The notes beneath the pieces are model-generated. The model saw nothing but the letters and a program-made list of their open reading frames with translations, had not been told where the DNA came from and ran no database searches. From IMG/VR virus record IMGVR_UViG_3300022602_000026: a DNA stretch of 64,000 bases. One strand, 5' to 3'. This stretch comes from a virus. Its lineage: Duplodnaviria; Caudoviricetes. The translations under genes and the position numbers were made by a program. Shown one piece after another: positions 14,501 through 63,264 of the stretch; the first letter of the stretch is position 1, and the number at the start of each line of letters is the position of its first letter.

Positions 14501-16699
14501 CCTGCCACAAGCGGTAACGTGGCAACATATACTAATAGTGCACTGAACTACAATCCAAGTACAGGTAATTTGGCATCAACATATTTTGTTGGATCAGGAC
14601 AGTACTTGACCAACCTCAACGTGGGCGCAATTGGACAAGTTCCACAGGCCAACGTGGCATCGTTCTTGAACGAAAGCCCAACTACTTCAGGTAGCACATT
14701 CTATCCGTTTATTGGTAACACTAATGCCACAAACGGTAACAGTGGTATCTTTACTGCTACAAGTCTTAACTATGTTCCTTCAACTGGTACATTGAGTGCA
14801 ACCACATTCAGTGGTGCAGGTACAGGACTAACAGGCACTGCTGCTAGTTTGAGCATTGGCGGGTCGTCTAATTCGGCAACATACGCGACCCAAGCAAGTT
14901 CAGTGGCCATCAATGCAGCAACCACATCAAGCGTATATTATCCTGTATTTGTACCAGCCAACACATCTACTGTTCAATACGAGTATGTAGACGGCAACAA
15001 TTATCTACAATACAATCCTGGTACTGGCAACTTGTCAACCAAGACTGCATACGTCGGAGCCGCTGGCGGAACTACAAGTACCAGTAACGTAACTGGAGCA
15101 CTAGTAGTAAACGGTGGATTAGGTGTAAGCGGTAATATCAATGTTGGATCAGTAACAGCACAACATAATATTATGGGTAACTTGTTAGTGGGCAATGGTA
15201 CAGTTTCTGCATCGGCAGTGACCACACTAGAAGTTAACCAAAATTCAGTTGCACCGTTAAATTCAACTTCGGTAGTACACATCAGTGCCAACAGTGGCAC
15301 AGTTGGTAAAGTCAGTTTAGATTCGTTTGGTAATGCATCGGTCTTTATTGCTAGACGAGCCGACGGAACATCAGCAAGTCCAACAGCTGCACAGTCAGGC
15401 GATATTCTAGGCGGATTCCTCATGCGAGGTTATGGATCCACTGGATTCAATTTACAACCTGCACCTCAAAGTACTGGTATGGTAGCAAGTGCATCTCAAC
15501 TGTTTACAGACACTGCACAAGGTACCGTATTAAACCTAATCACAGTTCCTACCAATAGTAATCTTGGTGTTAGTGCATTAACAATCAGCAGTGGTAGTGC
15601 TGCTGGGTATGCAGGTACAGTGGCAGTAACATCAAATACACAACCAACAAGCTCATCAACTGGCGCATTTACTGTAGTTGGCGGTGCTGGCATCCAGGGT
15701 AATTTGAATATTGGAAATGCAGCAATATTCAACAGCAGTCAAGGAACTGGTAACGACTTTATTGTACGTGGCAAAAACGATGCTACATTGATTTGGGCAC
15801 GTCCAAATACCAGCTACGATACAGTTATTATTGGTAACAGTGCAACTGCAAGTAACTATGTTGGTGGTGCTAAACTAAACATCAACACCACAGATTCAAT
15901 ATTGTTGCCGGTTGGTACTACTGCACAACGTCCGGGCAGTGCTGGATTTAGTGATGTAACTGGTATGTTGCGTTATAGCACAACACAAGGCGCAATTGAG
16001 TGGTACAACGGTACTAGTTGGGCAAGTGCAACTACCAGTTTCACAGTTGTTGCTGATGCTCAGTTTACTGGTACAGGAAGCCAAACAATATTTACATTAC
16101 CAAGTAGTCAAACTACCAACAGTTGTCTTGTAAGTATTAACGGTGTTATGCAAATACCAACCACATCTTACTCGGTCAGCGGAACAACTTTAACATTCAC
16201 AGAAGCTCCTTTGAACACTGACGTTATTGATGTACGCATGATAACAACAACTGCAACAGTTAACCAGTTATATGATACAAGTGGTTATAACACAGTCAAT
16301 ACTATTACTGGTGTGGGTATTACATTTACAACTGGTACGGCAGCGGCCACTACTCAGTACACAATTAACACTTCAGGTGCAATTGCAAGTACAGTGGCAA
16401 ACGTTACAATCTCAACTGCAAGTACACCAACTACAGTTGATAGTTTCTTTGCCAATACTTATAGTACCGCAAAGTACATTTTAACCAGTACATTTGCCGG
16501 AGTAAAAGAAGCAACAGAAGTGTTAGTGGTTACTAACGGTTCAGTAGCAAACGTTGTAACATATGGTACAATTAATACTGCCGGAAATGCTTTAACAAGT
16601 TGGAGCGCAACAATGTCAGGCAATATTGTTCAACTACAGGGTACAACAACAAATAATGGTACTGTAATTAGAATGACTAAACAGTATAACGCAAACTAA
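11519..16699 (+). CDS. Long tail fibre protein
   Basis: 1726 aa; recurrent NAATIGNTGA and TGAL.V.GGAGI repeats; GMLRYS; C-terminal VDSF..TYSTAKY domain. Confidence 0.75.
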   Translation: MAITQTQIVDYLNKKVGYGVAKTDTSTAKYPFNESIASPLLVPGATILQQDFAIPNVSSAPSANTVLNGSTIVSVYNTSTSAVVQGTSLSESVTNETWSTGITNWIPPSFGSGYQLKIYAGPPGASVSTAATYTNLPVAGSGNSDSWFFDYQSGILNFADTNVPTAAANVSNVVYFMGAVYTGTLGITNYANLSVTGNLTSINGNIVLTNGNITAANHIGTGNVTAANLVATSGIYGTFYGTVYGQSGSSSVGNVSYFVNEATTTTNATYYPLIGNTGGVTSGNTGVFTNSSLGYNPSTGTLFTNTLNAATIGNTGAAISGATLNLTSTASIGGTATVNALTSNGAVSGTTGTFNTLNAATIGNTGATLTGTLSTAAQTNITSVGTLTGLTVAGTEAVTTLNATTVNAATIGNASAVLTGATGTFSSWANVTGATQSTSASTGALIVAGGAGIGANLFVGGNATIAGNLQVNGTLTYLNTTTTQISGTEIVAGVIQANSGTASTSTTTGALQVLGGAGITGAVYAGSIQNTPIGSTTASSGSFTTLGTSGLVSLNNTTPNTGSGTGALQVSGGAYIAGNLFVGGNINLSQANVSVFTGNSGQFFGNAAGYGALYAGIPIGYVADPYTVTQITANFNNYAGVVTGQNLNSGPLASADIFLTPNNGTFNDTYLDMGIASSTYNYPGYSLIGANDAYLFNWGNATTGGGNLIVGTGTANDIIFAVQGINTNNEVMRITRANVVAIKSTVSASSTSTGALTVAGGVGVTGAIYAGSIQNTPIGSTTASTGVFTTVTTPTVNATNINSATIGNTGATITGAIVTATTSVTTATVSATSVYASTIGNSAAALTGATLNASTSVTTATVNATTVNATNVNGATIGNTGAVLTGATVTATTSVTTPTVTATTLNAATIGNTGAALTGSTLTASTSVTTATVNATNVNSATIGNIGASIVGNGGFLSNLIAANVVGTVTTANVAYYNNVATASSNATYYVDFAPATSGNVATYTNSALNYNPSTGNLASTYFVGSGQYLTNLNVGAIGQVPQANVASFLNESPTTSGSTFYPFIGNTNATNGNSGIFTATSLNYVPSTGTLSATTFSGAGTGLTGTAASLSIGGSSNSATYATQASSVAINAATTSSVYYPVFVPANTSTVQYEYVDGNNYLQYNPGTGNLSTKTAYVGAAGGTTSTSNVTGALVVNGGLGVSGNINVGSVTAQHNIMGNLLVGNGTVSASAVTTLEVNQNSVAPLNSTSVVHISANSGTVGKVSLDSFGNASVFIARRADGTSASPTAAQSGDILGGFLMRGYGSTGFNLQPAPQSTGMVASASQLFTDTAQGTVLNLITVPTNSNLGVSALTISSGSAAGYAGTVAVTSNTQPTSSSTGAFTVVGGAGIQGNLNIGNAAIFNSSQGTGNDFIVRGKNDATLIWARPNTSYDTVIIGNSATASNYVGGAKLNINTTDSILLPVGTTAQRPGSAGFSDVTGMLRYSTTQGAIEWYNGTSWASATTSFTVVADAQFTGTGSQTIFTLPSSQTTNSCLVSINGVMQIPTTSYSVSGTTLTFTEAPLNTDVIDVRMITTTATVNQLYDTSGYNTVNTITGVGITFTTGTAAATTQYTINTSGAIASTVANVTISTASTPTTVDSFFANTYSTAKYILTSTFAGVKEATEVLVVTNGSVANVVTYGTINTAGNALTSWSATMSGNIVQLQGTTTNNGTVIRMTKQYNAN

Positions 16700-56277: not shown

Positions 56278-56368
56278 GGAAGGCCAATCCAAATGGCGAT
56301 GGAACCGGTCTTGAAAACCGTCGAGCGTTAATAACGCCTTTAGAGTTCGACTCTCTAGCCTTCCGCCA
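56278..56368 (+). tRNA. tRNA-Ser(TGA)
   Basis: Cloverleaf, loop CTTGAAA, long variable arm, TTCGA, CCA. Confidence 0.95.
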
Positions 56369-56413
56369 AAATCTCACCGCTTCCGCCAATGTTGTATTTG
56401 TGCAACACCGCAG

Positions 56414-56658
56414 TTGTTCAGAAATGACAACTCAGTTATAATAGATACAAGTTAAGCAATTAACTGAAGTTAAGCAATTAACAAGTGTTGTATAACAACA
56501 ACATCAAATTTGCAAAGAAATGATGTCTAAGTTATAATAGATACATGTTAAGAAATTAACTAAGTTTAATTGATTAGCAAGTGTGTAGTGTAAATGCAAC
56601 ATCAAATTTGCAAAGAAATGATAAAGCAGTTACAATACATATATGTTAAGAAATTAAC
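56414..56658 (+). promoter_or_regulatory. Three tandem sigma70 promoters, each followed by a GTTAA-N4-TTAAC palindrome
   Basis: TTGTTC-17-TATAAT (56414), TTGCAA-17-TATAAT (56510), TTGCAA-17-TACAAT (56608); palindromes at 56451, 56469, 56547, 56645. Confidence 0.75.
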
Positions 56659-56735
56659 AGTAACAAATGATTGAGTTAGTTACAGAGTTCATTAAAAAAT
56701 TATTTAGGTAGTGCTAGTTTTGCTTGGCAACAAGC

Positions 56736-56995
56736 ACTACTTTAAAACACATTTGAGGTTACCTACACCGTTAGGTTCTCTAGGAGAGGAGCAAGGGTGC
56801 CGACTCACGCAATCCTAGGGCAACATGAAACAGAGCAGTAATGCTTGGCGATAGCGGCGGACAGGTAGGCAGTAATGACGAACTGAAGTCTGTGCAGACG
56901 GTGCACCGGGATGTTATCGAGCGTAAACCCTTATTAGGTAACGAACGGGTTGTGAGACGACAGAGGGGAGTTCCTCAAGTGTTTTTTAAAGTAGT
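56736..56995 (+). ncRNA. Candidate 260-nt multibranch ncRNA
   Basis: 23-bp near-perfect closing stem; internal CTCTAGGA/TCCTAGGG, CCTAC/GTAGG, AACCC/GGGTT helices and a GAGCA-GTAA-TGCTT GNRA hairpin. Confidence 0.6.
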
Positions 56996-57066
56996 TGAAA
57001 CTCTAGATTAAATCCACTGGTAATAAAGAGAGAAGTGAGTGGTACTCTCCAACTACTAACAATTTT

Positions 57067-57144
57067 GGTCTCATAGTATAGTTGGCCTAATATGCCTGCC
57101 TGTCACGCAGGAGATCACGGGTTCGAATCCCGTTGAGACCGCCA
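57067..57144 (+). tRNA. tRNA-Asp(GTC)
   Basis: CCTGC-CTGTCAC-GCAGG, TTCGAAT, CCA. Confidence 0.95.
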
Positions 57145-57214
57145 AAGTTTTCTGGCATTTTAACAAGGCGAGCCGTCAATGCAGAGTCTAGTTAAATGTA
57201 AGTCCAATCTAATT

Positions 57215-57290
57215 GCATCGTTCTTCTAGAGGCCAAGGAAAACCGCCTTTCACGCGGTCAACACCGGTTCGAATCCGGTACGATGTACCA
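57215..57290 (+). tRNA. tRNA-Glu(TTC)
   Basis: ACCGC-CTTTCAC-GCGGT, TTCGAAT, CCA. Confidence 0.95.
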
Positions 57291-57296
57291 AAATTT

Positions 57297-57385
57297 GGGG
57301 GCTAATCCACACGGGAGACTGTAAATCTCTTGCCATAATATGTGTGGTGGCTGGCAGTTAGGTTCGATTCCTTTAGTCCCCACCA
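57297..57385 (+). tRNA. tRNA-Tyr(GTA)-like, lacking a D-arm
   Basis: GGGGGCT/AGTCCCC acceptor, GGAGA-CTGTAAA-TCTCT, TTCGATT, CCA; only 10 nt between acceptor and anticodon stems. Confidence 0.75.
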
Positions 57386-57396
57386 TTTGTAGTTGT

Positions 57397-57550
57397 TATT
57401 GATAAGTGTTTGAGATGAACATGGGGTATCGTGGACTGATCATCCGCTATGCGGGCCTAACTGGCGTGGAACAGGTCCTGACATAACCCGCCATACGCTG
57501 TTGCCGGAAACGATCCGACGCATAAATTGGCACTCAAGCACTTTTCAATA
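57397..57550 (+). ncRNA. Candidate ncRNA closed by an 18-bp stem ending flush with tRNA-Arg
   Basis: TATTGATAAGTGTTTGAG / CTCAAGCACTTTTCAATA; internal GGGCCT/AGGTCC and ATGG/CCAT helices. Confidence 0.55.
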
Positions 57551-57625
57551 GTCGCTATAGTATAATGGATAATACGCCGTGCTACGAACGCGGTGATTGT
57601 GGTTCGATTCCATATAGCGGCACCA
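57551..57625 (+). tRNA. tRNA-Arg(ACG)
   Basis: CCGTG-CTACGAA-CGCGG, CCA. Confidence 0.95.
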
Positions 57626-57631
57626 AACAAT

Positions 57632-57706
57632 GGAGTTGTTAGTTTAGTGGTAAAACCGCGGGTTGTGATTCCGCTATCACGAGTTCGATTCTCGTACTTC
57701 TCCCCA
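57632..57706 (+). tRNA. tRNA-His(GTG)
   Basis: GCGGG-TTGTGAT-TCCGC; encoded G-1:C73; CCA. Confidence 0.92.
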
Positions 57707-57720
57707 GTGTAAAAGTTTTT

Positions 57721-57796
57721 GGGGGTATAGCTCATTTGGTAGAGCAGGACCTTTGCAAGGTCAAGGCGGCGGGTTCGAATCCTGTTACCTCCACCA
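57721..57796 (+). tRNA. tRNA-Ala(TGC)
   Basis: Loop TTTGCAA, G3:U70, CCA. Confidence 0.95.
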
Positions 57797-57802
57797 GAAT
57801 AC

Positions 57803-57894
57803 GGAGACTTGGATGAGTGGTTTAAATCGGCACCCTGCTAAGGTGTTGTATATAGTAATATGTACCGAGAGTTCGAATCTCTCAGTCTCCGCCA
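57803..57894 (+). tRNA. tRNA-Ser(GCT)
   Basis: GCACC-CTGCTAA-GGTGT, long variable arm, CCA. Confidence 0.95.
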
Positions 57895-57897
57895 AAT

Positions 57898-57926
57898 TTG
57901 ACAGTAAATGATGTTACTGTTACAAT
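57898..57926 (+). promoter_or_regulatory. Internal sigma70-type promoter
   Basis: TTGACA-17-TACAAT, ending 11 nt before tRNA-Gln. Confidence 0.8.
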
Positions 57927-57937
57927 AAGAAATCAGT

Positions 57938-58011
57938 TGGGGATTAGTTAAATGGTATAACAGTGGATTTTGATTCCATCGTCGAAAGTTCGATTCTTTC
58001 ATCCCCTGCCA
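57938..58011 (+). tRNA. tRNA-Gln(TTG)
   Basis: GTGGA-TTTTGAT-TCCAT, G73, CCA. Confidence 0.93.
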
Positions 58012-58158
58012 AAGTTTGTTAGTTATTAAAAAGGAAGTTAACATGAAAGACACTGCTAAACACTAGTGTCAATCTTGATCCCGTATTGGTCAGGGTTGGC
58101 ACATTAAAGAACTCTTTAATATAGTATTAAGACATTAAAGAAACTTTTAATACACCAA

Positions 58159-58234
58159 CCCTCTGTGGCGCAATTGGTAGCGCAACGGACTCTTAATCCG
58201 CTGGTTGGCAGTTCAAATCTGCCCGGGGGGACCA
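58159..58234 (+). tRNA. tRNA-Lys(CTT)
   Basis: Loop CTCTTAA, CCA. Confidence 0.95.
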
Positions 58235-58237
58235 TAT

Positions 58238-58313
58238 GGGACGTTAGCTCAGTAGGTAGAGCAAGAAACTTTTAATTTCGAGGTCATGTGTTCGAATCAC
58301 ATACGTCCTACCA
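58238..58313 (+). tRNA. tRNA-Lys(TTT)
   Basis: Loop CTTTTAA; its CCA forms the start of the first array stem. Confidence 0.95.
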
Positions 58314-58925
58314 TATAAAAACACATTAAGTAAGTCCCGGGCAAGATTCGTTTAATAGGCATTAGTGTGTTTCTATATGGTAAGTAATGATACAAGAGGG
58401 AGTAATTACCCTTCAAGTATGACCTAGAAGCGAGTGGACGAACGTGACTGTGGGCCACTAAGGTAGTCAACATTACAATCCATATAAAAACACATTCTTG
58501 TGGGTAAGTGACTTGGTTAACGCCGATATCGACCGCCCGTTTGTAGTGTGTTTCTATATGGTAAGGGCAAGGTGTGCTGTTGGTATCTGGCTTAGACCTC
58601 CGGACTGTCACTAGAATCATTACCGCTCTACTGCTTGGTCGGCAGTACCATATAAAAACACATTAGAGTAGCGACTATTGCTGGAGGCGGTAACACGTAA
58701 TTAGTGTGTTTTTATATGGTATATCAGTTTTTAGTAAGTCATACACGGGACTGCTACCTACGGGATAGATATCGAGGCTCGGAATCTCGGATACTAATTA
58801 CAGACTCAATGACGGATGCATACGGCATTGTTGATACGCCATATAAAAACACATTATCTAACCTGTAGTGCGGTCACAGGACATCGTAAGGTGTGGTAGC
58901 CGTGTTAGTGTGTTTCTATATGGTA
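58311..58925 (+). repeat. Array of four inverted-repeat stems with unique loops and unique spacers
   Basis: Left arm CCATATAAAAACACATT at 58311, 58480, 58648, 58839; right arm TAGTGTGTTTYTATATGGTA at 58363, 58544, 58702, 58906. Confidence 0.95.
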
Positions 58926-58997
58926 ATATAGCATAGTGGCTAATGCAGTTGCTTCATACGCAACCTATCGTTGGTTCGAGTCCAACTATTACCACCA
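58922..58997 (+). tRNA. tRNA(CAT), elongator Met or Ile2
   Basis: GTTGC-TTCATAC-GCAAC, G1:C72 paired (not initiator), CCA. Confidence 0.9.
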
Positions 58998-58999
58998 AG

Positions 59000-59168
59000 T
59001 TTCGGGATAGACGGCGCGATTGAGTCCCTTGACGGTCTTAGTGCTACAGGCTGTAGCATGACACACCAGTAGACCATAAGGTAGCATAAACTCTTGCGTT
59101 CGAGACAAAGACTAATCTTCTACACCGGGAAGTGGCGGTGTAGTCCTCTCTAGATCAGTTTCCCGAAA
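59000..59168 (+). ncRNA. Candidate 170-nt ncRNA
   Basis: TTTCGGGA/TCCCGAAA closing stem; TGCTACA/TGTAGCA, CTACACCG/CGGTGTAG and GGTCT/AGACC helices. Confidence 0.55.
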
Positions 59169-59309
59169 ATCTTTATGTTGCGGGGGTTGTGCGTCTGGCA
59201 CAAACTCCGCTGGAAGACACGTAAACATCTTTTGTTTATAAGGTCGATTTGAGTGTACTTTGTACAACATTTGAAATTCTGTGTAGATGTCTTCCATACA
59301 GTATTTATA

Positions 59310-59386
59310 GCCCCGATAGCTCAGTTGGTAGTAGCACCGTCTTGATAAGGCGTAGGTCCCTGGTTCGAGTCCAGGTCGAGGCACCA
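59310..59386 (+). tRNA. tRNA-Ile(GAT)
   Basis: Loop TTGATAA, TTCGAGT, CCA. Confidence 0.93.
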
Positions 59387-59400
59387 AATTAAAAATTTAT

Positions 59401-59483
59401 TCCACGGGAGCCGCCGGGTGTGGCAGCGGACTGTTAATCCGTGTCGAAAGACTAGCTAGGTTCGAGCCCTAGCCGTGGAGCCA
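59401..59483 (+). tRNA. tRNA-Asn(GTT) with long variable arm
   Basis: GCGGA-CTGTTAA-TCCGT; variable arm GTC-GAAA-GAC; CCA. Confidence 0.9.
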
Positions 59484-59498
59484 ATCATAAATAACTAT

Positions 59499-60104
59499 AT
59501 GTATAATTGTATAGTTTGTGAAAAATCTTTTGTCAGCATTATGTCCTTAACCGGTCATAAAAGAATGCACGGTCAATCTAATGGCAAATCTAAAAAGATA
59601 TTGTGTTCGTGTTTAATTACACGTAAGGTAATGCCGCATCAATATTTAGAAAAATATCAAGACAGTTTAATGGGTTGTAAGCAATGTAAAAAATTGTTTA
59701 AACCAACTGCACAAAGAACTACTTTTTGCTCTCAATCTTGTTCGGCAACATATAACAATACAGTTTACATAAAACGTAAGAAAAAAGAAAAACTGCCAAA
59801 GATTATTAGAGAGAAAAAAGTTTACTCAGAAGCCGAGAAAAAGGCTGCAAATGTTTCAGCAGTACAAGCCTACAGAGCTCGAAAATATAGTGCGACACTA
59901 CCAGATACAAATCGCAAACTTATTAATGAGATTTACAAAATGTGCCCAAAAGGTTATGAAGTAGATCATATTATTGCGTTAAGCGAAGGTGGTCCGCACC
60001 ATCAAGACAATTTACAGTATCTTCCTGCTATAGAAAATAGACGGAAGAACCGAACACAAAATTACGACAAAAGTCTTGCTATCAAATGGCAAGATGTGTT
60101 ATAA
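59499..60104 (+). CDS. C2H2/CxxC zinc-finger HNH endonuclease (homing-type)
   Basis: CIVC..H..MH finger, FCSQSC, EVDHIIALSEGG.HHQDNLQYL; TAAATA 59488-59493. Confidence 0.88.
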   Translation: MYNCIVCEKSFVSIMSLTGHKRMHGQSNGKSKKILCSCLITRKVMPHQYLEKYQDSLMGCKQCKKLFKPTAQRTTFCSQSCSATYNNTVYIKRKKKEKLPKIIREKKVYSEAEKKAANVSAVQAYRARKYSATLPDTNRKLINEIYKMCPKGYEVDHIIALSEGGPHHQDNLQYLPAIENRRKNRTQNYDKSLAIKWQDVL

Positions 60105-60200
60105 TAAAAACAAATACAAGTCAGTTCCCGGATGACTCGAAAAATGCGGGCTGCTCAATCGCCAACGGAGCGAGCGTAAGGTAACAGTTGGACAAATTTC

Positions 60201-60285
60201 GCCCCTTTGCGCCGAATGGGATGGCAACGGATTTGTAATCCGTCTTCGTAAGATAGAGAGTGTTCGATTCACTCAGGGGGCACCA
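60201..60285 (+). tRNA. tRNA-Thr(TGT) with long variable region
   Basis: ACGGA-TTTGTAA-TCCGT; 14-nt variable region; CCA. Confidence 0.9.
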
Positions 60286-60292
60286 AACAACA

Positions 60293-60541
60293 ATGTGGAC
60301 ATACTTAGAAACTTTTTTATTAGTATTTGCAACCGACATACTTTATATCTATTATGTTAAAGCCGTAACAGATCATAAAATATGGCGTGCAACCTTTTGG
60401 AGTATGGTAGTTACATTTACTGCTAGTATAGCAGTGATCAACTACACCGAGAACCATTGGACACTGATATCAAGTTTACTGGGTGCCGGAGCCGGCACTT
60501 ATATAGGTATGCGATTCATTAAAAAGAATAACGGAGTATAG
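60293..60541 (+). CDS. Small membrane protein
   Basis: Three hydrophobic segments ending LLGAGAGTYIG; start taken after tRNA-Thr; stop lies inside tRNA-Pro. Confidence 0.75.
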   Translation: MWTYLETFLLVFATDILYIYYVKAVTDHKIWRATFWSMVVTFTASIAVINYTENHWTLISSLLGAGAGTYIGMRFIKKNNGV

Positions 60542-60609
60542 CGCAGTCTGGCTAGCGCATCTGCTTTGGGAGCAGAGGGTCCAAGGTTCGAATCCTTGTA
60601 CTCCGACCA
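60532..60609 (+). tRNA. tRNA-Pro(TGG)
   Basis: TCTGC-TTTGGGA-GCAGA, CCA. Confidence 0.95.
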
Positions 60610-60621
60610 ATTAAATATAGT

Positions 60622-61692
60622 ATGAAAAGAATAGTTTGGCCATTAAAGATTTATGGTGACAAAGATTTATCGGGCAAAATTTGCACGATCCCTTTTAATA
60701 CTGTAGCAATATCAATTGAAGGTGATGTTCGTATATGTATGTGTACTGATTGGATGCTATCCACAGTTGGCAACATTTATGAAAATTCCTTACAAGATAT
60801 TTTAGTTAATGCAAGATCCACAACAATAAGACAATCTATTGTTGATGGTAATTTTAGATACTGTGACGAAACCAGATGCGGAGTATTGCTTAATTCAGAC
60901 ACAGGATTAATTACAGTAACGCAAGAAGATCAATTATTAAAAAATTTACTTGATCCTGCAAATTTTACAATACCATCTGAGATATGGATAAGTGGTGACA
61001 TGACCTGTAACCTTTCTTGTCCATCTTGTAGAAAAAGCATAATTCGAGAAACAGAAGCACAACAACGACAAAATCAAGAGCTATTAGATAATTTAGTTCA
61101 ACATATTTTTCCTGGCTCCAGCGATAAAGAAATTACCTTGTACATGAGCGCAACTGCTGAAGTATTTGCTAGTTCACTGTTACTGGGTTTGTTGGAAAAA
61201 TTGCCCATTGATCGATACCCTAACATTAGATTAAGTCTACAAACAAACGGGTTATTGGCCGAACGTAGATGGTCTAGGATCCAACATTTAGAAAAGAATA
61301 TACATCGTATCACAGTTACCATAGATAGTTGTACCAAACAAAACTATGAACTATTGAGACGAGGTGGTAAATTTGAAGATATGGAAAGTAGCTTAGAGTT
61401 TTTTTCAAAGAAAAAACGCGAGCTAGGGTTTCAGTATTATATTAGATCAGTAACGCAACAAACAAATTGCAACGAGATCGAACAATTTTATGATTATTGC
61501 AAACAACACGACGCTGATCGAGTTGAATACTGTAAGTTGGCCAATTGGGGAACTTTCACCGAGCAAGAATTTTTAGCACACGATGTGCTTGATAACGCAC
61601 ACCAACAGTACCAATCAACAATTGATACTTTTAATCGACTCAAAGAAAAATACAACGATGTATTTTTTATAGGCTTCGCAAGTATGGCGTAA
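60622..61692 (+). CDS. Radical SAM protein with N-terminal Cys-rich (SPASM/twitch-like) domain
   Basis: CNLSCPSC; CTIPF..GDVRICMC..CDETRC; stop lies inside tRNA-Leu. Confidence 0.88.
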   Translation: MKRIVWPLKIYGDKDLSGKICTIPFNTVAISIEGDVRICMCTDWMLSTVGNIYENSLQDILVNARSTTIRQSIVDGNFRYCDETRCGVLLNSDTGLITVTQEDQLLKNLLDPANFTIPSEIWISGDMTCNLSCPSCRKSIIRETEAQQRQNQELLDNLVQHIFPGSSDKEITLYMSATAEVFASSLLLGLLEKLPIDRYPNIRLSLQTNGLLAERRWSRIQHLEKNIHRITVTIDSCTKQNYELLRRGGKFEDMESSLEFFSKKKRELGFQYYIRSVTQQTNCNEIEQFYDYCKQHDADRVEYCKLANWGTFTEQEFLAHDVLDNAHQQYQSTIDTFNRLKEKYNDVFFIGFASMA

Positions 61693-61763
61693 TCGGTAGC
61701 CGCAGCAGACTTAAAATCTGCCGAGTTTGACTCGTCCCGGTTCGATTCCGGGTACTTGCACCA
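61678..61763 (+). tRNA. tRNA-Leu(TAA)
   Basis: GCAGA-CTTAAAA-TCTGC, long variable arm, CCA. Confidence 0.95.
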
Positions 61764-61765
61764 AC

Positions 61766-61842
61766 ACCACTGTAGTCTAACTGAATAAGGCACCGCTCTT
61801 CTAAAGCGTACGATGTGAGTTTGAATCTCGCCAGTGGTACCA
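61766..61842 (+). tRNA. tRNA-Arg(TCT)
   Basis: Loop CTTCTAA, ACCACTG/CAGTGGT acceptor, CCA. Confidence 0.92.
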
Positions 61843-61884
61843 TTTATCATAAATACTTCTATGTAAAGACTAGGAGTAGAAGTA

Positions 61885-62586
61885 ATGGATTATAAGAAAA
61901 TATACGAAAATTTAATAGATCGTGCTAGAGATCGATGTTTAATAGATGGTGAATATTATGAATCGCACCACATTGTTCCTAGATGTTTAGGTGGTAATGA
62001 TAGTATTGATAATTTAGTAAATCTAACAGCTAGAGAACATTTTATAGCACATTTATGCCTAGTTAAGAATAATCCGGGTAATCATAAACTTGTGAAAGCG
62101 GCCGTTATGATGACTGTTAGTGGCACAGTTCATAATAGAATAGGGAATAGAGTTTATGAATGGTTAAGAAAAAAGCATTCAGTTGCAATGAGTATTTCAC
62201 AATCCGGAAAAGGTAATAGCCAATTTGGATCTGTCTGGGTATTTAACGATATCTTAAAAGAAAATAAAAAAGTTAAAAAATCTGAATTATCTACGTTTAT
62301 TGCCGCCGGGTGGCATGAAGGAAGAGTTTATGATTTTGATAGCGTATATCAAAATTGTGCAGTTTGTGGAAAAGACTTCAGAAACCATTTTAAGAAAAAG
62401 ACTTGCAGTTACACATGTCAAGAAATCTTAAAAGGCAAATTTAAAAGTTTTGAAGGCAAAGAAGAAGAATTAAAAATGCATTATGCAAATACTAAGAGTA
62501 TGAATAAAGCATTAAAGGCAATGGGATATCCTGGAGCAGTTAGCCATTATTATCAATGGGCTAAACGTATCCTAAAGCAAACATAA
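61885..62586 (+). CDS. HNH homing endonuclease
   Basis: YESHHIVPRCLGG..NLVNLTAREHFIAH; TAAATA 61850-61855, SD AGGAG. Confidence 0.92.
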   Translation: MDYKKIYENLIDRARDRCLIDGEYYESHHIVPRCLGGNDSIDNLVNLTAREHFIAHLCLVKNNPGNHKLVKAAVMMTVSGTVHNRIGNRVYEWLRKKHSVAMSISQSGKGNSQFGSVWVFNDILKENKKVKKSELSTFIAAGWHEGRVYDFDSVYQNCAVCGKDFRNHFKKKTCSYTCQEILKGKFKSFEGKEEELKMHYANTKSMNKALKAMGYPGAVSHYYQWAKRILKQT

Positions 62587-62589
62587 TTT

Positions 62590-62664
62590 GCGACTATAGC
62601 ATAGCGGTAGTGCCGCGAACTCATAATTCGTACGGGGGTGGTTCGAATCCACCTGGTCGCACCA
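62590..62664 (+). tRNA. tRNA(CAT), elongator Met or Ile2
   Basis: GCGAA-CTCATAA-TTCGT, G1:C72 paired, CCA. Confidence 0.9.
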
Positions 62665-62669
62665 AATTT

Positions 62670-62745
62670 GCAACTTTAGCTGATGTGGTCATAGCGGTGG
62701 CGTGAAGAGCCATTGAACTAGGTTCGATTCCTAGAGGTTGCACCA
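62670..62745 (+). tRNA. tRNA-Phe(GAA)
   Basis: GTGGC-GTGAAGA-GCCAT, CCA. Confidence 0.92.
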
Positions 62746-62749
62746 AATC

Positions 62750-62827
62750 GCCCCCGTGGACAAATTGGCAAAGTCATTTCTCTCAAAAGGAAAAGTTTTC
62801 TCCGTTCGACTCGGAGCGGGGGTACCA
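62750..62827 (+). tRNA. tRNA-Leu(CAA) with short variable loop
   Basis: TTTCT-CTCAAAA-GGAAA; variable region only about 6 nt; CCA. Confidence 0.9.
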
Positions 62828-62829
62828 AG

Positions 62830-62903
62830 GCTCTTGTAGTTAAGTGGCATAACACAGTCTTGGTAAGACTGAATAGAAAGTTCGATTCTTTCCTAGAGCA
62901 CCA
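62830..62903 (+). tRNA. tRNA-Thr(GGT)
   Basis: CAGTC-TTGGTAA-GACTG, CCA. Confidence 0.95.
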
Positions 62904-62904
62904 G

Positions 62905-62933
62905 TTGACAAATAAATAGAATGATAGTATAAT
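62905..62933 (+). promoter_or_regulatory. Consensus sigma70 promoter
   Basis: TTGACA-17-TATAAT, ending 10 nt before tRNA-Gly. Confidence 0.9.
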
Positions 62934-62943
62934 AGATACTAAT

Positions 62944-63017
62944 GCGGGATTAGTTTAATGGTAAAACAGAACCTTGCCAAGGTTCGGACAGGAGTTCGAT
63001 TCTCCTATCCCGCTCCA
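62944..63017 (+). tRNA. tRNA-Gly(GCC)
   Basis: GAACC-TTGCCAA-GGTTC, U73, CCA. Confidence 0.95.
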
Positions 63018-63024
63018 AGAGTTC

Positions 63025-63098
63025 GCCTCGGTAGTTTAATGGTAGAACGGCATCCTTACACGGTGCATACGGGAGTTCGATTCTCCAACGAGGTACCA
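63025..63098 (+). tRNA. tRNA-Val(TAC)
   Basis: GCATC-CTTACAC-GGTGC, CCA. Confidence 0.95.
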
Positions 63099-63106
63099 AG
63101 AAAGAT

Positions 63107-63180
63107 GGGTCATTAGTATAATGGTAGTACAAGAGTCTCCAAAACTTTTAGCGGTGGTTCGATTCCATCATGACTCGCCA
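63107..63180 (+). tRNA. tRNA-Trp(CCA)
   Basis: AGAGT-CTCCAAA-ACTTT, CCA. Confidence 0.95.
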
Positions 63181-63186
63181 AACAAT

Positions 63187-63264
63187 GTAAGGGTGGCAGA
63201 GTGGCCCAATGCAACGGATTGCAAATCCGTAAAACCGTCGGTTCAAATCCGACCCCTTACTCCA
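63187..63264 (+). tRNA. tRNA-Cys(GCA)
   Basis: ACGGA-TTGCAAA-TCCGT, U73, CCA. Confidence 0.95.

Follow-up and report, generated by a model that had tools for sequence, protein, structure and literature searches.

A gene for a probable tyrosine tRNA with a rewired, pseudoknotted D arm in a jumbo phage

Introduction

Elongator tRNAs outside mitochondria are taken to be cloverleaves, and gene finders as well as Rfam have been built accordingly. Here we analyse an 89-nt gene that has the acceptor, anticodon and T arms of a tRNA-Tyr(GUA) and no D hairpin. It is located at positions 57297–57385 (plus strand) of the IMG/VR virus record IMGVR_UViG_3300022602_000026, a stretch of 64,000 nucleotides that is referred to as the window throughout. 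The gene lies in a co-oriented tRNA array (56278–63264) of a jumbo phage, the large terminase of which is 53% identical to PA5oct-like phage terminases.

Several described RNAs share features with this gene. The canonical class II tRNA-Tyr(GUA), represented by E. coli tyrT, by the copies of T5, T6 and SP15 and by those of two related viral loci from IMG/VR (L074 and L004), has the same CUGUAAA anticodon loop, G1-C72 pair, A73 and encoded CCA. It also has the UUCGAUU-type T-loop, the extra variable arm, the 12-bp acceptor/T branch and the slot in the array in common with the odd gene. The latter differs from it in lacking the D hairpin, in carrying what appears to be the 5′ half of the D arm in the variable loop, in its pseudoknot and 6-bp D-like helix, and in a branch that is divided 8/4 rather than 7/5.

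tRNAs with 8/4 and 9/3 branches, including phage tRNA-Ser and tRNA-His, have been reported, and these are cloverleaves (Mukai et al., PMC5389517). The (8/4) tRNAs and allo-tRNAs of bacteria and phages resemble the odd gene in the 8-bp acceptor stem and the 4-bp T stem, in their occurrence in phage clusters and in being missed by standard finders (PMC5389517). However, they possess a normal D hairpin and Ser-, His-, Cys- or Sec-like identities, whereas the odd gene has no D hairpin and the anticodon GUA; neither a Tyr species nor a pseudoknot is mentioned by Mukai et al. (PMC5389517). The D-armless mitochondrial tRNAs (such as nematode and mammalian mt-tRNA-Ser; PMC7609411), which were invoked in the original prediction, made from the window sequence without database searches, likewise have acceptor and anticodon stems with no D hairpin in between. 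This likeness proved superficial, since the mitochondrial molecules are shortened and contain a short flexible connector (PMC7609411), whereas the odd tRNA has 89 nt, rebuilds the helix with a distant strand and is of phage or bacterial, not organellar, provenance. A review of non-canonical tRNAs holds no phage or pseudoknot case (PMC7609411).

With tRNA-Sec (RF01852) the odd gene shares a long acceptor stem, a 6-bp D-type helix and a long extra arm; tRNA-Sec, however, has the anticodon UCA, a 13-bp branch and a D hairpin, as opposed to GUA, 8 + 4 = 12 bp and a non-hairpin D helix. The tyrosine-accepting tRNA-like structure (TLS-Tyr) of the bromovirus brome mosaic virus (BMV) is likewise a viral RNA, carries marks of tyrosine identity and contains a pseudoknot, but it constitutes the 3′ terminus of the genome of a plant RNA virus, has its pseudoknot in the acceptor arm, is of the C1-G72 type and does not serve translation (PMC9976931). 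Full-text literature searches did not retrieve a description of the rewired tRNA-Tyr fold.

A probable tyrosine tRNA gene that standard tools do not call

For ease of comparison, gene position n corresponds to window coordinate 57296 + n. In agreement with the original prediction, the site contains an acceptor stem, an anticodon arm with a 7-nt loop, U33 and the anticodon GUA, a T arm with a T-psi-C type loop (UUCGAUU), the discriminator A (57382) and the CCA end (57383–57385). The cloverleaf element that is missing is the D hairpin (stem 10–13:22–25 with a G18 G19 loop): between the acceptor stem, when read as 7 bp, and the anticodon stem there are just 10 nt (AATCCACACG). These include CCACAC (57307–57312), the exact complement of GTGTGG (57342–57347) in the 27-nt variable region. 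By our arithmetic, about 0.005 perfect 6-mer complements are expected by chance in a region of this size.

Analysis of the window with ARAGORN gave 25 tRNAs for 19 amino acids, with no call at 57297–57385 and no Tyr anywhere in the window. At the gathering threshold, Rfam reports 22 tRNAs across the whole window and none at this site, and the canonical cloverleaf model RF00005 does not match there even with E values up to 10. The sole Rfam match at the site is a sub-threshold one to tRNA-Sec (RF01852; 22.5 bits versus a gathering score of 47). When the plus strand of the window was searched for GUA anticodon arms, one was found, namely that of the odd gene. This agrees with the earlier statement that it is the only Tyr decoder in the window.

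Folding of the single sequence was of little help. In the minimum free energy (MFE) structure the anticodon arm is broken, and its energy is not better than that of shuffles (z = −1.12). A nested structure with the D-like helix reaches −25.6 kcal/mol, compared with −28.2 kcal/mol for the MFE fold; a pseudoknot can be represented by neither.

Covariation across the family

Relatives were gathered from IMG/VR viral metagenome contigs by an exact search, by a search with the T arm and acceptor end, and by a gapped pattern composed of the anticodon loop, 26–38 nt and the T-loop. The gapped pattern returned 93 stretches, among which there were 62 distinct sequences with the rewired architecture and five ordinary cloverleaves. 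Covariation was computed for a five-helix structure on an alignment of 62 distinct sequences (A2). In this structure 95.0% of the cells are paired, against 75.1% in shuffles, and the covariation score amounts to 0.547 versus 0.153 in shuffles; not one of 500 shuffles scored as high, and slid registers gave 0.127 at most.

In the long-range helix (positions 11–16 with 46–51) all six pairs have changed on both sides, 99.5% of the cells are paired and 29 strand combinations occur. For example, L070 and L071, which were found by the T-arm/acceptor-end search, have CUCUAC/GUAGAG in place of CCACAC/GUGUGG, i.e. three consecutive compensatory pairs. Because the helix contains G-U pairs, which would be A-C on the opposite strand, the structure is one of RNA on the plus strand. 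The complementarity that had been noticed in the window is therefore a real helix and not the product of random decay. Strictly speaking, the gene is not D-armless: a D hairpin is lacking, but the D stem itself has been rebuilt as a long-range covarying helix.

Position 8 covaries with position 78 (GC 47, AU 9, UG 5), which assigns 8 bp to the acceptor stem and 4 bp to the T stem. Under the alternative 7/5 reading the fifth T pair would be mostly U-C, A-C or U-U in the family. Accordingly, one of the two U-U pairs originally placed in the T stem is found at the base of that stem (alignment pair 68:82; UU 38, GU 11, AU 6, GC 6), whereas the second gives way to the acceptor pair A8-U78. A 9-bp acceptor stem, as in the Rfam Sec alignment and in the MFE fold, was ruled out, as U9 of L070 breaks that pair.

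The variable stem measures 3–5 bp in the family and occurs in 19 strand combinations, among them GUCA/UGAC, GGCA/UGCC and ACCU/AGGU. Its mean length of 3.42 bp exceeds the 2.74 bp obtained with shuffled partners, and 0 of 500 shuffles were as high. The crossing of this stem with the long-range helix makes the fold a pseudoknot. The variable stem had been proposed as TGCCA/TGGCA; GCCA indeed pairs with UGGC, but the fifth pair, U35:A60, lacks specific support, because U35 fits equally well into a 26:44-like pair with R17 (GU 51, AU 9). On the 3′ side of the relocated strand, UGG is present in 62/62 viral copies, and CGG takes its place in the copies from Neorhodopirellula.

The window copy displays every feature by which the pseudoknotted family is defined, i.e. 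the 8/4 branch, the 2-nt linker, a strand of 6 nt that pairs with a 6-mer in the variable loop preceding YGG, the short crossing variable stem and GUA. It scores 99.4 bits with the covariance-based family model R1, of which it is itself a training sequence; the next-best R1 matches in relatives, at about 32 bits, are canonical Tyr genes.

By the exact search, the same 89 nt were also recovered, without a single change, from two further metagenome assemblies, L001 and L002, whose flanks are about 87% identical to the window; an assembly artefact is thereby excluded. Between the window and L001 the odd gene is identical at 89/89 positions, and the adjacent tRNA-Glu at 57/76, with many compensatory changes.

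Tyrosine identity and replacement of the canonical gene

To leave the anticodon free, we used a second pattern in which only the variable-loop motif and the T-loop were fixed. This yielded 54 stretches, including nine new ones, and the anticodon is GUA in all 54, lying in a CUGUAAA loop in 53 cases and in UUGUAGC in one. G1-C72 is present in 61/62 copies and the discriminator A (A73) in 62/62. The elements that determine tyrosine identity are A73, U35 of the anticodon and, in Bacteria, G1-C72 (PMC9976931). The window copy carries the bacterial tRNA-Tyr set, with G1-C72, A73, GUA including this U35 (canonical numbering), and a long variable arm.

The position of the gene points in the same direction. 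In L074 and L077 the order is tRNA-Glu, cloverleaf tRNA-Tyr (9173–9258 in L074), a 165-nt RNA and tRNA-Arg(ACG), so that the slot of the cloverleaf Tyr gene corresponds to that of the odd gene in the window, where the same 165-nt RNA follows. L004, the closest relative by flanking protein (98%), has a tRNA-Met(CAT) in this slot; its cloverleaf tRNA-Tyr (16244–16328; Rfam 35.3 bits) is found four genes further along, between Ala and Ser, an interval that comprises just 6 nt in the window. All of these arrays possess a single Tyr gene, which is either the cloverleaf or the rewired form. As the three acceptor stems are unrelated, the changes are cassette replacements. The breakpoints lie within a few nucleotides of the gene ends: the cassette spans 57291–57550 in the window (odd Tyr plus 165-nt RNA), 9168–9424 in L074 (cloverleaf Tyr plus the same RNA) and 15908–15992 in L004 (a single tRNA-Met(CAT)).

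A similar picture emerges from the gene content of the arrays. ARAGORN assigns 15 or more amino-acid specificities to 26 of the arrays that carry a family member; it called a Tyr gene in none of these, and in nine of them, including the window, Tyr is the only gap (19 specificities). It is important to note that ARAGORN calls no tRNA-Tyr at L004 16244–16328, which Rfam scores as a tRNA, nor at L006 15873–15940 and L060 19699–19766. Counts of arrays without Tyr thus needed a second check, for which we searched for GUA anticodon arms. This check covered 17 family arrays with 18 or more specificities, and in each of them the sole GUA arm on the array strand is that of the odd gene; L004 and L074 also have a single GUA arm on the array strand. 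From synteny and gap-filling it is evident that the odd gene stands in for the normal tRNA-Tyr. Together with the covariation, this bears out the original idea of a re-engineered fold in which a D remnant pairs with the variable region.

Occurrence in phages and bacteria

The family is conserved in many uncultured phages. A blastn search of 50,697 isolate phage records, with the window copy and the typical member L089 as queries, returned no family member, just weak partial matches to the cloverleaf tRNA-Tyr of T4-like Klebsiella phages. Beyond viral contigs, members occur in bacterial assemblies, namely in metagenome-assembled genomes (MAGs) of Phycisphaerae, in the cultured carriers Neorhodopirellula pilleata Pla100 and Tateyamaria omphalii KCTC 12333, and further in Spiribacter, Flavobacteriales and Neisseriaceae MAGs. 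N. pilleata Pla100, a cultured planctomycete, has three copies on one 153-kb contig (NZ_SJPM01000014.1; L178/L184/L188/L190), plus one additional 32-bit match. Two of the three copies were seen within repeated arrays of 22–26 tRNA genes, which look like a mobile tRNA-array element; the strain would be a convenient experimental system.

Proposed fold of the window copy

The 8-bp acceptor stem of the window copy is formed by GGGGGCUA (57297–57304; G1–A8) and UAGUCCCC (57374–57381; U78–C85). Its first seven pairs (GGGGGCU/AGUCCCC) include one G-U, and the helix is 98.6% paired in the family. A 2-nt linker follows (A9 U10; 57305–57306), which is UU in 49/62 and AU in 6/62 members, U10 being nearly invariant. 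The 5′ strand of the rebuilt D stem (CCACAC, C11–C16; 57307–57312) then continues into the anticodon arm (57313–57331, including G17 and U35), whose 5-bp stem (GGAGA/UCUCU; 57314–57318/57326–57330) covaries in the family and whose CUGUAAA loop presents the anticodon at 57321–57323.

The variable arm opens with the strand GCCA (G36–A39; 57332–57335) and is closed by UGGC (U56–C59; 57352–57355), thereby crossing the rebuilt D stem. Its loop begins with an A/U-rich connector (UAAUAU, U40–U45; 57336–57341) that contains the nearly invariant A42 and is 6–8 nt long in most members. Next comes GUGUGG (G46–G51; 57342–57347), which is the 3′ strand of the rebuilt D stem, and then U52 G53 G54 and C55 (57348–57351), of which the GG is invariant and is proposed as a stand-in for the D-loop G18 G19. 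A 3-nt linker (AGU, A60–U62; 57356–57358), 2–3 nt in 56/62 members, leads to the T arm (57359–57373), which consists of a 4-bp stem (UAGG/CCUU, U63–G66/C74–U77) with a U-U at its base and the loop UUCGAUU. The discriminator (A86) and the CCA complete the gene (57382–57385); ACCA is encoded in 49/62 members.

In a cloverleaf, it is the 3′ D strand (22–25, followed by 26) that leads without interruption into the 5′ side of the anticodon stem. In the odd tRNA this place would be taken by C11–C16, topologically about canonical positions 20–25, and then G17, which may act with U35 like the 26:44 pair. Given this placement, the partner strand G46–G51 would be the topological counterpart of the 5′ D strand in a cloverleaf. 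One nucleotide and the invariant GG come after it, and the distance from the first stem nucleotide to GG is 7 nt, compared with 8 nt from position 10 to G18 in a cloverleaf. Judging from this connectivity, the strand and the GG that make up the D arm's 5′ half seem to have been transferred to the variable loop, beyond the anticodon arm. The outcome is a 6-bp D-like helix crossing a short variable stem as a pseudoknot, with the 12-bp acceptor/T branch and its 8/4 split, an anticodon arm and a T-loop that are both normal, G1-C72, A73 and GUA all retained. The GG could dock on the T-loop in the manner of G18 G19 and so produce the L shape, and U10 and A42 are candidates for a U8:A14-like contact. 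Such a molecule would be charged by the host tyrosyl-tRNA synthetase (TyrRS) and used by EF-Tu and the ribosome.

Function of the odd tRNA and alternative explanations

From a comparative sequence perspective, it is reasonable to propose, with a probability of roughly 75%, that the gene encodes a functional elongator tRNA-Tyr(GUA) of the jumbo phage and represents a conserved family of non-cloverleaf tyrosine tRNAs with a rewired, pseudoknotted D arm.

Several observations weigh against this assignment. The Tyr count covers the 64-kb window, and a canonical tRNA-Tyr elsewhere in the phage genome is possible. The T stem comprises a U-U and just three Watson-Crick pairs, the variable stem is short (3–4 bp), and the invariance of the T-loop is built in, since the search patterns fixed it. 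Just 1–2 nt join the invariant GG to the variable stem, for which reason a GG-docked L shape is plausible but unproven. Finally, a genome relying solely on the odd tRNA-Tyr was sought among the cellular carriers and not found: according to ARAGORN, a canonical cloverleaf tRNA-Tyr coexists with it in both Phycisphaerae MAGs checked. ARAGORN Tyr calls were also made at 7 of 85 viral loci, although in at least one case (L161) the call overlaps with the odd gene. The odd tRNA is thus not always the only Tyr gene.

Of the alternatives, the one that fares best, though it is clearly less likely than a re-engineered working tRNA, is a mimic of tRNA-Tyr that is abundant and does not decode, serving as a decoy or sponge for host tRNA-Tyr nucleases such as Septu/PtuAB and retron-Eco7. 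The PtuAB nuclease of retron-Eco7 and Septu cut tRNA-Tyr within its variable loop at U47/C48 and C48/A49, overexpressed tRNA-Tyr neutralises PtuAB toxicity, and a phage tRNA-Tyr with a different variable loop escapes cleavage (PMC12673091, PMC13096335, PMC11555353). It would suit a decoy that the altered region of the fold is exactly the variable arm. A decoy, however, has no need for a conserved 7-nt GUA loop, G1-C72, A73, CCA and a 12-bp branch together, nor does it account for a gene that fills the sole gap in otherwise complete arrays of 19 amino acids and occupies the canonical tRNA-Tyr slot of close relatives. Moreover, where protection by a phage tRNA-Tyr has been published, that molecule is a working tRNA in its own right.

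Still less probable is a tRNA-like RNA that acts outside translation, as a processing signal, primer or regulator, and has kept just its acceptor/T half, to be recognised by RNase P and the CCA enzyme. Phage tRNA clusters do hold other structured RNAs, e.g. the adjoining 165-nt RNA, and gene finders do not see the odd gene as a tRNA. Yet GUA and the anticodon arm are conserved while the stem covaries, a constraint on the decoding half that such a role does not require, and the Tyr-specific filling of gaps would be left without explanation. A decaying tRNA-Tyr pseudogene or an assembly deletion with a fortuitous 6-nt complementarity would agree with the missing hairpin, the unremarkable MFE fold and the sub-threshold Rfam score, but it is refuted by the covariation and excluded for practical purposes, because identical copies exist in two other assemblies with diverged flanks and the 62 distinct relatives show compensatory changes in every helix, whereas pairs would be broken, not exchanged, by random decay.

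If the gene does encode a working tRNA-Tyr, its design might relate to phage defence. By analogy with the escape of the phage tRNA-Tyr mentioned above, half of the D arm held in a pseudoknot-locked variable loop could yield a functional tRNA-Tyr that Septu/PtuAB-type nucleases neither recognise nor cut. We put this forward tentatively, as an idea that is rather unlikely to hold in full. In that event, immune pressure would have driven both the evolution of a non-cloverleaf elongator tRNA and its spread through phages and mobile tRNA arrays.

Apart from this, the family keeps all parts of a tRNA, connected in another order and closed by a pseudoknot. Should the odd tRNA be charged and decode, the L shape would be reachable by another topology, the tRNA sets of phages and mobile elements would have been under-counted, and the window's array with 19 of 20 specificities would really be complete. 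It would also offer a natural test case for the requirements of TyrRS, RNase P, EF-Tu and the ribosome, and the odd tRNA could be an orthogonal tRNA scaffold.

Neighbouring elements of the array

When the gaps in the array were scanned for additional acceptor/T modules that lack annotation, none came to light. Between the odd tRNA-Tyr and tRNA-Arg(ACG) lies the 165-nt RNA (57386–57550, core 57397–57550), which is conserved, structured and closed by a stem of about 18 bp. It recurs in L001, L074/L077, L073/L076 and L075 in differing contexts, the L075 locus being without ARAGORN tRNA calls. RNAalifold, run on five sequences, gave 45 pairs, 14 of them with compensatory changes, and the RNA has no Rfam match.

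Two further tRNA genes in the window carry class-II-like extra variable arms: tRNA-Asn(GUU) (59401–59483, 83 nt) with GUCGAAAGAC and tRNA-Thr(UGU) (60201–60285, 85 nt) with CUUCGUAAG. The L004 versions are ordinary, at 75 nt and 74 nt, respectively. The tRNA-Asn(GUU) of the window is not among the Rfam tRNA matches, and in relatives a length of 88 nt is likewise reached by several Lys(UUU) genes. Between the tRNA genes there are open reading frames for HNH-type and homing endonucleases (phrog_1035, phrog_655; 59475–60104 and 61885–62586). Their presence would fit endonuclease-driven shuffling of the array, as has been reported for SegB in T-even phages (PMC13096335).
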